Sequence record: OR767160
Length of the DNA stretch: 50,596 nt
Source: Escherichia phage vB-EcoS-XT34
Direction: 5' to 3' (one strand)
Part shown: piece by piece, positions 1,139 through 49,333 of the stretch
Layout: each line of letters opens with the position of its first letter
Numbering within the stretch: the stretch's first letter is position 1
Translations under genes and position numbers: made by a program
Notes under the pieces: generated by a model
The model's database searches: none
The model's input: the letters and a program-made list of their open reading frames with translations, nothing else
What the model was told of the DNA's origin: nothing

Positions 1139-1701
1139 TGGGGATGTTTGATTTTAACGAAGAGAAGCTGACAGATGAGCAGATTATGAAGATTGCTACG
1201 GAAGATGGGCTTCCACCACTACGAGTTGCAATCAATGCTAACGGATACCGACAGTCACAAAAGTACTGGTGCGAATTAGAAGTTATGCGTCGCGCAAACC
1301 TAAATCGTGAACAATGCGTCGTGGTTGAAAAGATCTGGAAGCAAGCGATAAATGGAAAAGGCGTTGTGGGAGTTCGCTCAACATATGAGGCGATCAGAAA
1401 GGTCCAGCCGTTCGTCGAGCGTAATGGAGTAATGAATAACCTGATTGACAATATCCTACCATCACTACAGGACGCGGGAATCATTTGCCTTATTGGTGAC
1501 AAGATATATGCACACCCATACCTGGTGGGCATGTATGGGAGAGACATTCACAAGTGGTGCGACTCATGGAGATCGGTTGAGCGCAAATCTCATAGCAAAT
1601 TGCAGTCAAGCTCAGACATGATTCATGGCTATGATGCCGATGAGGTGGAGAAGGCCATCCAGTTCTACCGGAAAGCGAAATCTCTCCTGAACGGTGAATA
1701 G
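1138..1701 (+). CDS. hypothetical protein, mini-paralog of the 527-aa protein at 46425-48008
   Basis: N-terminus MFDFNEEKL..LPPLRVAINANGYRQSQ and central NGKGVVGVRSTYEA..CLIGDKIY match the N- and C-terminal ends of the 527-aa protein; stop TAG lies inside the box motif. Confidence 0.6.
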   Translation: MGMFDFNEEKLTDEQIMKIATEDGLPPLRVAINANGYRQSQKYWCELEVMRRANLNREQCVVVEKIWKQAINGKGVVGVRSTYEAIRKVQPFVERNGVMNNLIDNILPSLQDAGIICLIGDKIYAHPYLVGMYGRDIHKWCDSWRSVERKSHSKLQSSSDMIHGYDADEVEKAIQFYRKAKSLLNGE

Positions 1702-3296: not shown

Positions 3297-3515
3297 ATGC
3301 AAGTCTACACTAACAGTAAAGGCATTGAATTTTGTGCGGTCGGCGATGTGGTCCTGCGCACTGGTGGCGGATACGGGATTATTAATATCTCAGGCATTAC
3401 GCAGGATCAGTTGGTAAAGGGTATCCAGGCTGGCATCTTTACCTATCACTCATCACTGACGGCTAAGCAGTATGTCACACTTGAAACTGCAATTCGCGCC
3501 GGATTCATCGAATAG
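3297..3515 (+). CDS. hypothetical protein
   Basis: 72-aa ORF, stop TAG is the first triplet of a box element. Confidence 0.4.
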   Translation: MQVYTNSKGIEFCAVGDVVLRTGGGYGIINISGITQDQLVKGIQAGIFTYHSSLTAKQYVTLETAIRAGFIE

Positions 3516-30880: not shown

Positions 30881-30908
30881 TTGACTAATGCAACAAGTCG
30901 CGTATAGT
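30881..30908 (+). promoter_or_regulatory. candidate sigma70 promoter for the recombination module (TTGACT-16-TATAGT)
   Basis: -35 TTGACT at 30881-30886, -10 TATAGT at 30903-30908, then CATCAACAACGAACGAGGA leader and ATG at 30942. Confidence 0.5.
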
Positions 30909-30941
30909 TACCAGCATCAACAACGAACGAGGATTAAATAG

Positions 30942-31982
30942 ATGACCAAGCCACCGTTTCAATACTTCACGTCAGAAGAAATGAGCAACGACTTTTACCA
31001 CAGCAAAGATGAGTGGACATCAGAGTATGTATCAGGCTCATCACTCAGTAAGATCCATAGCACTTGTCCGGCAGCCTGGAAGTTTGAAATGAACTCGACG
31101 ACTAAGGCACTGGTCTTCGGTACGCAGTCGCATACCAACTTTGAGAGCAAAGCACTGTTTGAGCGTCAGTATCGCCGCGCACCGAAAGAAAGCGAGATTG
31201 AAAACGTGATCACTAGTCAGGCAGCATTGGCAACGAAATTAAAATCATTTGGCCTGACTGGTACAAGCGGTAAGCAATATCCAGAACTGATCAAGATGAT
31301 GGTTGATTGCGGCGAAGACCTCAACGTCATGTGGCTGATTGATATGATCGCACAATGTCAGGCGTGGGCCGATGGCGTGGAACTGGTTAAGGCGGAAGAC
31401 TACGACGCTTGCGTAAGTATGCGCCAAGTTCTTGAAATGATTCCTGAACATAACTCTTGCATGAACAGCGAGACGGCATTCCGTGAGTATTCTTTGTTCG
31501 GCGTAATCTGTGGCGTTAAAGTCAAGGTGCGACTTGACCATGTTGACATCATTAATGATCCAGAAGCCATCCGGCGCATGGGTTACGATCCTGAGATTCA
31601 CCCTGAAATCGTCGTCATCACTGATTACAAAACGACAATGAGCGCCAACCCGACCGAGTTCCCGCGCATGGCGTTCAACCTTGGATATTACCTCAAGATG
31701 GCATTGCAGCGTGACCTGTTCGTTAAATGCTTTGAGGAAACGCGACCTGTGGTTGTGCGCTTGCTGGCCCAGGAGAAGAAAGAACCTTACTTGCCTATGG
31801 CGTACCGCATGAGTAGCGATCAGCTTAAGATTGGTCGTGCGCAGTACATGAGCGTTATTCATACTTTCTCAATGTGCGAAGCGAATGACGTATGGCCTTC
31901 ATACAGCAACGGCGAACCAGAGATTGAGCTTGAGACTCCTGACTGGATTATGAAACAGTTCAAGCACATTCTGGAATCGTAG
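30942..31982 (+). CDS. recombination exonuclease (PD-(D/E)XK, RecB/lambda Exo-like)
   Basis: 346 aa, ITDYKTT motif; adjacent to Erf and SSB genes. Confidence 0.55.
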   Translation: MTKPPFQYFTSEEMSNDFYHSKDEWTSEYVSGSSLSKIHSTCPAAWKFEMNSTTKALVFGTQSHTNFESKALFERQYRRAPKESEIENVITSQAALATKLKSFGLTGTSGKQYPELIKMMVDCGEDLNVMWLIDMIAQCQAWADGVELVKAEDYDACVSMRQVLEMIPEHNSCMNSETAFREYSLFGVICGVKVKVRLDHVDIINDPEAIRRMGYDPEIHPEIVVITDYKTTMSANPTEFPRMAFNLGYYLKMALQRDLFVKCFEETRPVVVRLLAQEKKEPYLPMAYRMSSDQLKIGRAQYMSVIHTFSMCEANDVWPSYSNGEPEIELETPDWIMKQFKHILES

Positions 31983-32021
31983 CACTTTTTGCTAAACACG
32001 AACGCGGTGATTTGCTATAAT
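31980..32021 (+). promoter_or_regulatory. box element (TAGCAC-TTT-TTGCTAAA) plus TGcTATAAT
   Basis: box overlapping the exonuclease stop, 21 nt to an extended -10-like hexamer. Confidence 0.5.
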
Positions 32022-32058
32022 CACCGTAAATCAAACAAAGTAAACAAAGGTATATATA

Positions 32059-32715
32059 ATGCGTACATCAGAGAAATTTTCGAATGTTTCAGCCGCTCTA
32101 ATTGCAGCCAAAAAGCAGTTTGCCATCGCAAAAAAATCAGGCTTCAATGCTCACCTGAAAAGCCATTACTCAAACCTGACGGACGTTCTGGATGCGGTTG
32201 AGCCAGCACTAAAAGAGCATGACCTTATGGTTATCCAGTCAAATCTTGACACGTCAACAGAGAAGGTAATGCACATTGAGACACTCATCCTTCACAGCTC
32301 CGGCGAGTGGCTTGCGTTCCAGTACAATATGCCGATCGAGAAGATTAGCGCCCAGGCTTACGGCTCAACAACCTCATACGGTCGCCGTTACGCATTGTGC
32401 GCGGCGCTTGGAATCACTCAGAGCGATGACGACGCTGAAATCGCGAAGCGCACGGCAGCGGACTACAAAAAACTGATCGCCAACTGTGAAAAACTGGAAG
32501 ACCTCCAGGTGATCTATAAGAGCGCGAAAGGTTCGCTTGGCGCGGCGGAATGGAAGATTGCAGAAGACCACTTGCAGAAGCGCAAGGCTGAACTGAGTAT
32601 CGGTAACGCTCGCGGTTTCCAGCCAGCGAAAAAGGCAGATACTCAAAAGGTTGAAGGCAAGGTTGCAAATGCACCTTCCGAACCAGTACAATCTGAATCC
32701 ATCGAACAATTCTAA
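32059..32715 (+). CDS. erf: single-strand annealing protein, Erf family
   Basis: 218 aa with Erf-like N-terminal region, between exonuclease and SSB genes. Confidence 0.6.
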   Translation: MRTSEKFSNVSAALIAAKKQFAIAKKSGFNAHLKSHYSNLTDVLDAVEPALKEHDLMVIQSNLDTSTEKVMHIETLILHSSGEWLAFQYNMPIEKISAQAYGSTTSYGRRYALCAALGITQSDDDAEIAKRTAADYKKLIANCEKLEDLQVIYKSAKGSLGAAEWKIAEDHLQKRKAELSIGNARGFQPAKKADTQKVEGKVANAPSEPVQSESIEQF

Positions 32716-40658: not shown

Positions 40659-41387
40659 ATGATCGACTCAAACGACAAAGATACTCATGACGCATTCGTT
40701 AGCTTCGAGCAGATCGAGTGTGAAAACTTTGTTACCAATGCGCTTGTTCCTGGTAACGGTCATTATCAGTCGGTTAAGCCGGACACCTTCTATCAGGTAA
40801 CTGGGAAACGATACGCCGGAAGCAAGACGCCTGACGCAGTTCGTGACCTATGGGCCACTGACAGAGAAGTGATCTCATGGATGGAGTCGCGTTATGGGAA
40901 GTATGACATTGACGCCGCCGCCAGCGCTAACAATGCTATTTGCGAAAAGTTCTACAGCGAACAAGTGAACTGCCTCAAAATCTGGTGGGGTAGCAATAAG
41001 CACATCTGGATGAATCCTCCGTACTCACATCCAGATCCTTTCGTGAAGAAGGCGATTGAGCAGATGGAGCACGGGAACCAGATTGACATGCTCTTGCCTG
41101 GCGATAACTCGACGGCGTGGTTCGCTGAGGCACGACGCAATGCGGCTGAGATCATCTGGATTGAGGCAGAGATAACAGAAATTGACCAGCAGGAATACTG
41201 CCGAACCGGAAGGCTGGCATTCATATCAGGCCTGACCGGAAAGCCTGTAGATGGGAATAATAAGGGATCTGTCATCTTCATTATGAGAAAGCTGAAAGAA
41301 GGTGAGGCGCAGAAAACGACATACGTCTCAGTTAGTGATATTTGCCCTGGCGTTAGCCGTAAAAAACCACGTAAGCGGAGTGTTTAA
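40659..41387 (+). CDS. dam: DNA N6-adenine methyltransferase (phage Dam-type)
   Basis: 242 aa with catalytic NPPY motif (WMNPPYS). Confidence 0.7.
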   Translation: MIDSNDKDTHDAFVSFEQIECENFVTNALVPGNGHYQSVKPDTFYQVTGKRYAGSKTPDAVRDLWATDREVISWMESRYGKYDIDAAASANNAICEKFYSEQVNCLKIWWGSNKHIWMNPPYSHPDPFVKKAIEQMEHGNQIDMLLPGDNSTAWFAEARRNAAEIIWIEAEITEIDQQEYCRTGRLAFISGLTGKPVDGNNKGSVIFIMRKLKEGEAQKTTYVSVSDICPGVSRKKPRKRSV

Positions 41388-48433: not shown

Positions 48434-48469
48434 TTTGTTTGCCTTTTTGTGTTTCGTTTCGATGAGATC

Positions 48470-48512
48470 AATATACAGGAAAAGCCCCGAAGGGCTTTAG
48501 CAATTAGTGCTA
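48470..48512 (-). promoter_or_regulatory. box element (TAGCACTAATTGCTAAA) plus TATATT and CTCATCGAAACGA leader, leftward
   Basis: minus-strand box TAG is the stop codon of the methyltransferase-like gene; 22-nt spacer with hairpin agccc-ttcg-gggct. Confidence 0.5.
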
Positions 48513-49178
48513 TTTGTTGCTTTCATATAGTGCGCGAGCAAAACCTTCCGGTGTTAATGAGCGTAGCACCTTTGTCTTTGCAGACTTTCCGCCGCAGTAT
48601 TTCCAGGCCCAAAAGAATCCAATGCTCTCAACTGGTTTTTTAATCGGCTCAACAAATCCATTTCCACACCAAATACAAGTCTTTTTGTTGTAGGCATTGC
48701 GAGTGGGCATCCTTGGGTGATAAACCTCATCGTGATCAATGTAACCGCCATAATCGCAAGGGTGGAAATAGAAGTCCGGTTTACGCCATAGAGTTGACAG
48801 TTTGCCTACAGGATTCTCAACCATCCATGGGGCATTAAAGTGATTGCCGACTTCCTCGACGAGCTTCGCATTAGCCAGGGCATACGCCAGTTCATCCTCA
48901 CTGCGCTCATGCTGTGATCCAGACTGAGAGAACAGCGTGCAATCAGGGAATCCGATAACCATCTGCGCCGGAGGCAGGCCGAGCAATTCACACTTGGTGA
49001 TGAAATCCTTGTCAATCCACATGTTGACGTAGTGAATGTTCTCATGCTTCATCTTGATGTGATATTCGCCATGATTGCCGGAGTCCGCGTTGAAGCAGTA
49101 GACGGTGTGACCATCTTCCGCCCATGGGAGGCCAGCGATACCAGAACCGTCAAAAAGACAATAAATTACCTTTTTCAT
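48510..49178 (-). CDS. compact C5-cytosine methyltransferase-like protein
   Basis: 222 aa with motif I-like LFDGSGIAG, motif IV-like GFPDCTLFSQSG and ENV-like MVENPVG; too short for a canonical target-recognition domain. Confidence 0.5.
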   Translation of the reverse strand: MKKVIYCLFDGSGIAGLPWAEDGHTVYCFNADSGNHGEYHIKMKHENIHYVNMWIDKDFITKCELLGLPPAQMVIGFPDCTLFSQSGSQHERSEDELAYALANAKLVEEVGNHFNAPWMVENPVGKLSTLWRKPDFYFHPCDYGGYIDHDEVYHPRMPTRNAYNKKTCIWCGNGFVEPIKKPVESIGFFWAWKYCGGKSAKTKVLRSLTPEGFARALYESNK

Positions 49179-49333
49179 TTCTTCTTTGCCTTCTCAATTG
49201 CTTTCTGTGTGATTTCGTAACTGCTTTGCAAGTCTTCAACCTGAGCTCTGGTGCTCCATGGATACCATCCTTGACCTGAGAGATTCGCGATCGTGTCGTT
49301 GTCGTAGTAGTTCAAATCGGATGGCTTTAGCAT
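49175..49333 (-). CDS. small hypothetical protein (52 aa)
   Basis: hand-translated MLKPSDLNYYDNDTIANLSGQGWYPWSTRAQVEDLQSSYEITQKAIEKAKKK, coupled at both ends (TAATG and ATGA overlaps). Confidence 0.3.
   Translation of the reverse strand: MLKPSDLNYYDNDTIANLSGQGWYPWSTRAQVEDLQSSYEITQKAIEKAKKK

Follow-up and report, generated by a model that had tools for sequence, protein, structure and literature searches.

Among the compact Dcm-like cytosine methyltransferases of bacteriophages, one has been studied experimentally. In phage K42, which shares 95.4% genome identity with KarlJaspers (Bas06), all four mutants escaping the retron Ec86 had a disrupted 711-bp dcm gene (Wang et al., bioRxiv 10.1101/2023.08.16.553469; Cell Rep 2024 43:114857). 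This gene's expression was toxic only in the presence of the retron; LC-MS (liquid chromatography coupled to mass spectrometry) against a 5-methylcytosine (5mC) standard identified 5mC on the multicopy single-stranded DNA (msDNA) of the retron with the wild-type enzyme and not with a C82A/E128A/K175A/K176A mutant; and the mutation of either C in the CCTGG of the msDNA stem led to the loss of defence or triggering (Wang et al., bioRxiv 10.1101/2023.08.16.553469). Within the family, 5mC formation and the triggering of Ec86 have been demonstrated for K42 Dcm only (Wang et al., bioRxiv 10.1101/2023.08.16.553469). Here we describe the related gene of Escherichia phage vB-EcoS-XT34 (XT34; sequence record OR767160), whose whole stretch of 50,596 nucleotides constitutes the window analysed.

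We consider it very probable that this gene encodes an active DNA cytosine-C5 methyltransferase of the compact Dcm-like family, dependent on S-adenosylmethionine (SAM), with methylation of CCWGG-type sites, a benefit against restriction and a cost imposed by the retron. As regards XT34 itself, the activity of its protein, which carries a 'PDCT' motif, the CCWGG specificity, the anti-restriction benefit and the sensitivity to the retron are all points that we infer. The gene is a member of an already known and annotated family with one experimentally studied representative, and the C5-cytosine-methyltransferase-like interpretation of the initial annotation is supported by the motifs, the predicted fold, the purifying selection and the homology and synteny with the characterised gene.

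Family, motifs and predicted fold

Membership in the family follows from homology along the full length of the protein, both to phrog_757, 'DNA methyltransferase' (residues 1-222, E 2.9e-78), and to bas06_0055 of KarlJaspers (BLASTP, 45% identity, E 3e-69), a 711-bp gene annotated as 'Dcm-like C5 cytosine methyltransferase' and located in the same slot beside a gene for a 527-amino-acid (aa) helicase. Furthermore, the family signature F-P-x-C-T / E-N-P / Y-x-K-K-T / R-S-x-T-P is complete in the XT34 protein, and its 222 aa fall within the range of approximately 200-260 aa. A word-indexed search retrieved 934 homologs at E<=1e-3, an exhaustive one yielded 833 clusters at 50% identity, and tblastn matches were found in 1,490 phage records, mostly of Escherichia, Klebsiella and Salmonella phages of several families; such numbers far exceed chance, and the family is common in Drexlerviridae and in several other phage groups. 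Since the median length of its representatives is 225 aa (6/150 exceed 300 aa), the small size is a family character and not a truncation.

The K42/KarlJaspers enzyme shares the architecture of the XT34 protein (236 vs 222 aa), and its residues C82, E128, K175 and K176, which were mutated jointly, align with C80, E121, K165 and K166. The two differ in motif IV, which reads FPPCT in the former and FPDCT in XT34, and by three small indels, one of them in the segment between strand beta-7 and motif IX (XT34 residues 173-190). Two other homologs occupying the same slot are known by annotation only: ESCO41 gp24, 'DNA methyltransferase', with 97.7% identity, and PeterMerian (Bas05) bas05_0050, 'Dcm-like C5 cytosine methyltransferase', with 62% identity and a GFPDCT motif, although its gene model has a 20-residue N-terminal extension.

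Conservation was assessed on a 40-sequence alignment of homologs and on 237 aligned family members. The segments LFDGSGIAG (residues 8-16), GFPDCTLFSQSG (residues 76-87) and MVENPVG (residues 119-125), initially pointed out as motif I-like, motif IV-like and ENV-like, are all present in the translation in that order, and the codons of FPDCT and ENPVG can be read off the DNA. The smaller set shows no variation at the motif residues, D10, G11, S12 and G13 of motif I included, and the larger one very little; in the latter, position 9 is F, Y or C, and D10 and G13 are kept in 201 and 203 sequences, respectively. Motif IV retains P78 in 228, C80 in 235 and T81 in 227, with a variable position 79 (D in 100 sequences, P in 91, S in 20, E in 14 and V in 10). 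Because this position is P in 84/116 representatives at 50% identity and D in 95/120 close relatives of the XT34 protein, F-P-x-C-T is the family motif; FPPCT, with the classical Pro-Cys, is ancestral, and 'PDCT' characterises a subclade. As to the initial formulation, 'PDCT in place of PCQ', the cysteine is flanked by Asp and Thr, and P-D-C-T is best set beside P-P-C-Q, the canonical form (GGPPCQ): the Pro before Cys is swapped and no residue inserted. In motif VI, E121 is found in all 237 sequences, N122 in 232 and P123 in 236, and the basic pair shows K165 in 234, K or R at position 166 in 198 and T167 in 233. The C-terminal part is similarly constrained (R206 229, S207 221, T209 215, P210 222, G212 230, A216 222 and N221 204). 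Moreover, the gene is under strong purifying selection: the ratio of nonsynonymous to synonymous substitution rates (dN/dS) is 0.024 versus ESCO41 (48 synonymous and 6 nonsynonymous changes), 0.085 versus Sd1 and approximately 0.12 versus more distant members, with an overall range of 0.024-0.125.

The structure prediction that had been proposed as a check agrees with the above. An AlphaFold2 model built on 40 homologs (predicted local distance difference test, pLDDT, 87.9; predicted template-modelling score, pTM, 0.87) places all seven strands of a complete Rossmann-like core between residues 4 and 172, with a strand at 167-172, and pLDDT drops below 50 at residues 86-90, in the loop after motif IV. 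When the model was compared with the PDB through Foldseek, the first 29 places were all taken by DNA cytosine-C5 methyltransferases (DNMT3A/B, M.HaeIII, the CP-933R prophage methyltransferase and DNMT1), i.e., the predicted fold is that of a class I Rossmann-like methyltransferase nearest to the C5 enzymes.

From these elements and the established chemistry of C5 methyltransferases, a mechanism can be proposed. The whole protein would essentially correspond to the seven-stranded catalytic domain, in which the FDGSG loop of motif I would bind SAM, C80 would attack C6 of the flipped-out cytosine, E121 of E-N-P-V-G would protonate the cytosine N3, and residues 86-90 after motif IV may constitute the mobile catalytic loop. 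K165 and K166 on strand 7 would replace the arginines of motif VIII, a role assigned to K175 and K176 of the K42 enzyme by superposition on DNMT3A (Wang et al., bioRxiv 10.1101/2023.08.16.553469). The sole target-recognition element would be made of some 65 residues outside the core (roughly 139-166 and 173-210), between strands 6 and 7 and before RSLTP. Expressed from a leftward cluster of small genes, probably with translational coupling to a 52-aa open reading frame (ORF), the enzyme would most likely methylate the CCWGG-type sites of the phage DNA and, as a side effect, those of the host, thus giving protection against EcoRII-type restriction on hosts without Dcm. As a cost, the same activity would methylate the msDNA stem of retron Ec86 (Eco1) and lead to abortive infection.

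Beyond the single-domain proteins, structure matches in BFVD show the compact module embedded as a domain in some very large proteins of uncultured phages (A0A6J5SE15, 1,397 aa, 'Helicase/UvrB N-terminal', 27% identity, template-modelling score 0.69; A0A6J5NPY6, 1,126 aa); among these matches, other viral C5-methyltransferase-like proteins of ~210-250 aa occur in Lactococcus phage P087, Tetraselmis virus 1 and Halobacterium phage phiH. In addition, about 35 unannotated 'Campylobacter phage' records of 47-50 kb (MG065636-MG065681) carry a 62%-identical homolog, as near as those of E. coli and Klebsiella T1-like phages, and their host label looks doubtful.

Target specificity and alternative explanations

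The occurrence of CCWGG and CCSGG sites was compared with counts expected from dinucleotide shuffles or from a first-order Markov model (Table 1). The CCWGG excess is host-like, and as a signature of the enzyme it was rejected as uninformative, being also seen in the E. coli chromosome and in the dcm-negative phage T1; the purge of CCSGG is phage-specific. The maintenance of CCWGG together with the purge of CCSGG suggests a situation that would be expected if methylation covers CCWGG while a CCNGG-type restriction selects against the rest. As a general correlate of dcm, however, the purge failed in rV5 (Table 1) and in Webervirus-like dcm-positive loci (homolog of ~60% identity; observed/expected ratio, O/E, 1.1-1.5), in neither of which CCSGG is depleted, so its link to the gene is indirect and conditional on lineage or host. 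A decay of methylated CCSGG by deamination was unsupported as well, since the products CTSGG and CCSAG are depleted and not enriched. Separately, GGWCC is under-represented in XT34, KarlJaspers and the host (O/E 0.3-0.5).

Table 1. Observed/expected counts of CCWGG and CCSGG (CCCGG/CCGGG) in phage and host sequences
Sequence	dcm	CCWGG	CCSGG
XT34 genome	present	122/65	3/48 (z -6.1)
KarlJaspers	present	125/46	2/34
E. coli K-12 50-kb segment	host dcm	117/72 (O/E 1.63)	70/76
T1	absent (tblastn negative)	83/52 (O/E 1.60)	65/45 (O/E 1.44)
T7	absent	2/69	9/42
rV5 50-kb segment	present	106/81	33/44
dcm-positive Drexlerviridae loci, helicase-anchored	present		about 14/243
dcm-negative relatives, helicase-anchored	absent		64/119 (O/E 0.54)

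Several observations weigh against an active Dcm-like enzyme of CCWGG specificity. The CCWGG site was taken from the host Dcm by analogy and not mapped (Wang et al., bioRxiv 10.1101/2023.08.16.553469), and in the papers searched, direct mapping of the target of the compact family was not found. MG1655, the host used in that work, carries dcm (30899-32317 of the E. coli sequence used here); nevertheless, its empty-vector control showed low 5mC on the msDNA and an untriggered retron despite the host dcm (Wang et al., bioRxiv 10.1101/2023.08.16.553469). This fits poorly with an identical specificity of both enzymes, and the phage enzyme must therefore differ from the host Dcm in target, access or level. 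The family profile aligned with E. coli K-12 Dcm (hhalign) at a probability of 1.5%, over 23 columns around motif IV only and with no homology in the target-recognition domain, for which reason orthology with the host Dcm was rejected. Furthermore, the BASEL study reported no simple link between Dcm-like genes and restriction resistance, and the only assayed enzyme has Pro before the cysteine (FPPCT) where the XT34 sequence has Asp. The XT34 protein alone had no match in Pfam, NCBIfam or the PDB sequences (the latter by phmmer; PF00145 was absent even at E<=10), and the 40-sequence family profile found no solved structure by sequence (hmmsearch of the PDB). The gene is also dispensable: p111 has no gene in the slot (p111 3434-3499), P818 carries in its place a 189-aa endonuclease VII/HNH-type gene (phrog_1035, E 7e-17; P818 3500-4069), and in T1 an HNH gene lies beside the helicase without dcm (tblastn). 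As only 9/40 close homologs reach PF00145, and weakly (best E 3.1e-6), the compact family lies on the sequence fringe of the canonical C5 methyltransferases, to which it is linked only via PHROGs, the structure comparison and these weak matches.

The target data bear directly on the view that the protein is an active C5 DNA methyltransferase with a specificity unlike that of the host Dcm, either relaxed (e.g., CCNGG), or directed to the outer C, to hairpin or to single-stranded DNA, which we regard as a possible, though not a likely, explanation. It draws on the missing sequence relation to the target-recognition domain of E. coli Dcm, on the lack of a mapped target in the papers searched, on the triggering of Ec86 by the phage enzyme and not by the MG1655 Dcm, and on the mention of a 'toxicity of Dcm itself' (Wang et al., bioRxiv 10.1101/2023.08.16.553469). 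In addition, the near-total purge of CCSGG in several dcm-positive E. coli Drexlerviridae lineages, set against the O/E of 0.54 in dcm-negative relatives and of 1.44 in T1 (Table 1), could stem from type IV restriction acting on methylated CCSGG. McrA targets Y-5mC-G-R, which C-5mC-G-G would fit. Nevertheless, the loss of triggering when either C of the msDNA CCTGG is mutated is compatible with CCWGG recognition, the methylase-less T7 has purged CCWGG and CCSGG alike, as would fit a protection of CCWGG only, and the CCSGG purge is not general, as rV5 and the Webervirus-like loci indicate. That the compact enzyme is not a copy of the host Dcm and, with its ~65-residue recognition element, reads its site in another way, be it as a DNMT3-like dimer, with relaxed CCNGG specificity, on the outer C or with a preference for hairpin DNA, we hold to be rather unlikely. 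If true, such a departure from the host Dcm would explain why Ec86 is triggered by the phage enzyme and not by the host Dcm in a dcm-positive host, and it could tie the enzyme to the near-total CCSGG loss in dcm-positive E. coli Drexlerviridae.

Other explanations touch the substrate, the activity or the chemistry itself. A substrate other than DNA, be it a tRNA or rRNA cytosine as in Dnmt2 or free nucleotides, seems very improbable, and a catalytically dead derivative (an inactive one was among the options of the initial annotation), serving as a DNA- or SAM-binding decoy, slightly more so. The replacement of PCQ by PDCT, the motifs VIII (QxRxR) and X (GN(A/S)V) that are not evident and the missing PF00145 match of the XT34 protein would speak for such a derivative, but the strong purifying selection rules out a decaying or inactive copy. 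Moreover, the 237 sequences show near-invariance of the Cys, the Glu, the basic pair and the residues of the SAM loop, the homolog sharing the C-T, ENP and KK features is active and is inactivated when these residues are mutated, and the variation at position 79 (P/D/S/E/V) inside an otherwise frozen motif looks like tolerated variation rather than decay. Least probable of all, in our view, is the transfer to cytosine C5 of a group other than methyl, e.g., carboxymethyl from carboxy-SAM: the structural match behind that idea is put down to the shared C5-methyltransferase fold, 5mC is what LC-MS detected for the homolog, with a 5mC standard as reference, and no cofactor-synthesis gene was seen beside the ORF, which has the helicase gene and small ORFs of unknown function around it.

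Genomic neighbourhood and variable slot

XT34 is a T1-like siphovirus of the Drexlerviridae, whose nearest relatives are the Nouzillyvirus phages ESCO41 and CJ19. The ORF list reproduced the dcm gene exactly as initially delimited (Table 2). It sits among small ORFs of unknown function that form a leftward cluster, immediately upstream of the 527-aa helicase gene, and the order helicase, small ORFs, dcm is also found in ESCO41, KarlJaspers and PeterMerian, all of them Drexlerviridae. At positions 49175-49178, in the sequence ATGA, the dcm start codon overlaps the TGA stop of the upstream 52-aa ORF, and this overlap suggests that the translation of dcm is coupled to that ORF. Downstream, a hairpin of -13.2 kcal/mol with a z-score of -2.2, which gives modest support, received no call by a simple terminator scan; tentatively, it could be an intrinsic terminator or a 3' stabiliser of the dcm transcript.

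Table 2. Features of the dcm locus and of related genes in the XT34 window
Feature	Coordinates	Strand	Description	Basis
Compact Dcm-like C5-methyltransferase gene (predicted)	48510..49178	-	222 aa, ATG start, TAG stop at 48510-48512	ORF list
Motif I F9-D-G-S-G13	49140..49154	-	FxGxG SAM-binding loop (predicted) after strand beta-1	conservation; strand 4-8 precedes in model
Motif IV F77-P78-D79-C80-T81	48936..48950	-	predicted nucleophile C80; codons TTC CCT GAT TGC ACG	conservation
Motif VI E121-N122-P123-V124-G125	48804..48818	-	ENV-type; codons GAG AAT CCT GTA GGC	conservation
K165-K166-T167	48678..48686	-	on strand beta-7, proposed substrate-binding basic pair	conservation; K42 Dcm alignment
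Motif IX-like L205-R-S-L-T-P210	48549..48566	-	followed by C-terminal helix 211-221 (GFARALYESN)	conservation; model helices 200-206, 211-221
Hairpin AAAGCCC-UUCG-GGGCUUU with U-rich tail	48470..48498	-	begins 12 nucleotides past dcm stop	RNA fold
Upstream 52-aa ORF	49175..49333	-	phrog_4548 (function unknown)	ORF list; phrog_4548 E 7.5e-25
DNA helicase, 527 aa	46425..48008	-	synteny anchor of dcm slot	phrog_2373 E 2e-255; 71% identity to KarlJaspers bas06_0052
Dam-type N6-adenine methyltransferase	40659..41387	+	second methyltransferase of the genome	Pfam PF05869 Dam E 2.1e-60

The separate Dam-type methylase that had been placed alongside the gene does exist, but it lies 7.1 kb off and is not adjacent; its protein shares 70% identity with the 'Dam-like N6-adenine methyltransferase' of KarlJaspers. 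Though both phages encode such an enzyme, GATC is over-represented in KarlJaspers (269 vs 183 expected, z +6.5) and not in XT34 (201 vs 215). As for the helicase, a peptide encoded at the left end of the window (1147-1530, plus strand) resembles part of it (tblastn with the KarlJaspers helicase: 31-47% identity, E 1e-10 to 3e-13) and may be a stand-alone copy of its C-terminal domain; apart from this, residues 439-526 at the C-terminus of the helicase match phrog_7327, whose function is unknown.

Within Nouzillyvirus, the dcm slot (XT34 48434-49178) is variable, and several relatives carry an HNH gene adjoining dcm. The slot has the appearance of a hot spot for homing endonucleases that also holds accessory cargo, and its variability fits an accessory gene having both a benefit and a cost. 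The gene in itself is a routine member of a widespread, annotated family of phage methyltransferases, and its relevance in practice lies in prediction: the DNA of a phage carrying it would be expected to contain 5mC, and the phage itself to be detected by retron Ec86/Eco1, which E. coli BL21 possesses, and perhaps to withstand restriction of the EcoRII type. These expectations matter for the choice of host in propagation or in phage therapy.

Comparison with canonical enzymes and host Dcm

With respect to the canonical enzymes (PF00145, EC 2.1.1.37), the XT34 protein possesses the FxGxG of motif I (F9-D-G11-S-G13) and, in motif VI, a near-invariant E121-N122 whose third residue is Pro and not Val (ENPVG). 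It departs from them in that P78-D79-C80-T81 stands in place of the Pro-Cys of motif IV (PCQ) and in that it falls below the gathering threshold of PF00145; neither the QxRxR of motif VIII, nor a large target-recognition domain, nor the GN(A/S)V of motif X is recognisable in its sequence, and only ~80 residues separate ENPVG from RSLTP. Compared with M.HhaI (327 aa) and M.HaeIII (330 aa; PF00145), it is approximately 100 residues shorter, reads P-D-C-T and E-N-P, and lies below Pfam detection. With a putative recognition element of ~65 residues, the initial description of a protein far shorter than typical C5 methyltransferases and with no room for a standard target-recognition domain holds.

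The host enzyme, E. coli Dcm, has 472 aa, CCWGG as its target and Vsr as its partner. The XT34 protein would agree with it in chemistry and perhaps in target (Wang et al., bioRxiv 10.1101/2023.08.16.553469), but the phage protein is less than half as long and comes without a vsr partner. The catalytic domains of DNMT3A and DNMT3B, in turn, differ from it by their size (~280 aa), by their canonical PC, ENV and RxR motifs and by an identity of 13-19%, and DNMT3 works on CpG as a DNMT3L-assisted tetramer. Although the recognition element of DNMT3A/B is larger than the ~65 residues proposed here, DNMT3 is a small-TRD enzyme, i.e., one with a small target-recognition domain, and so reduced an element in the XT34 protein would explain why DNMT3 is its best structural match.
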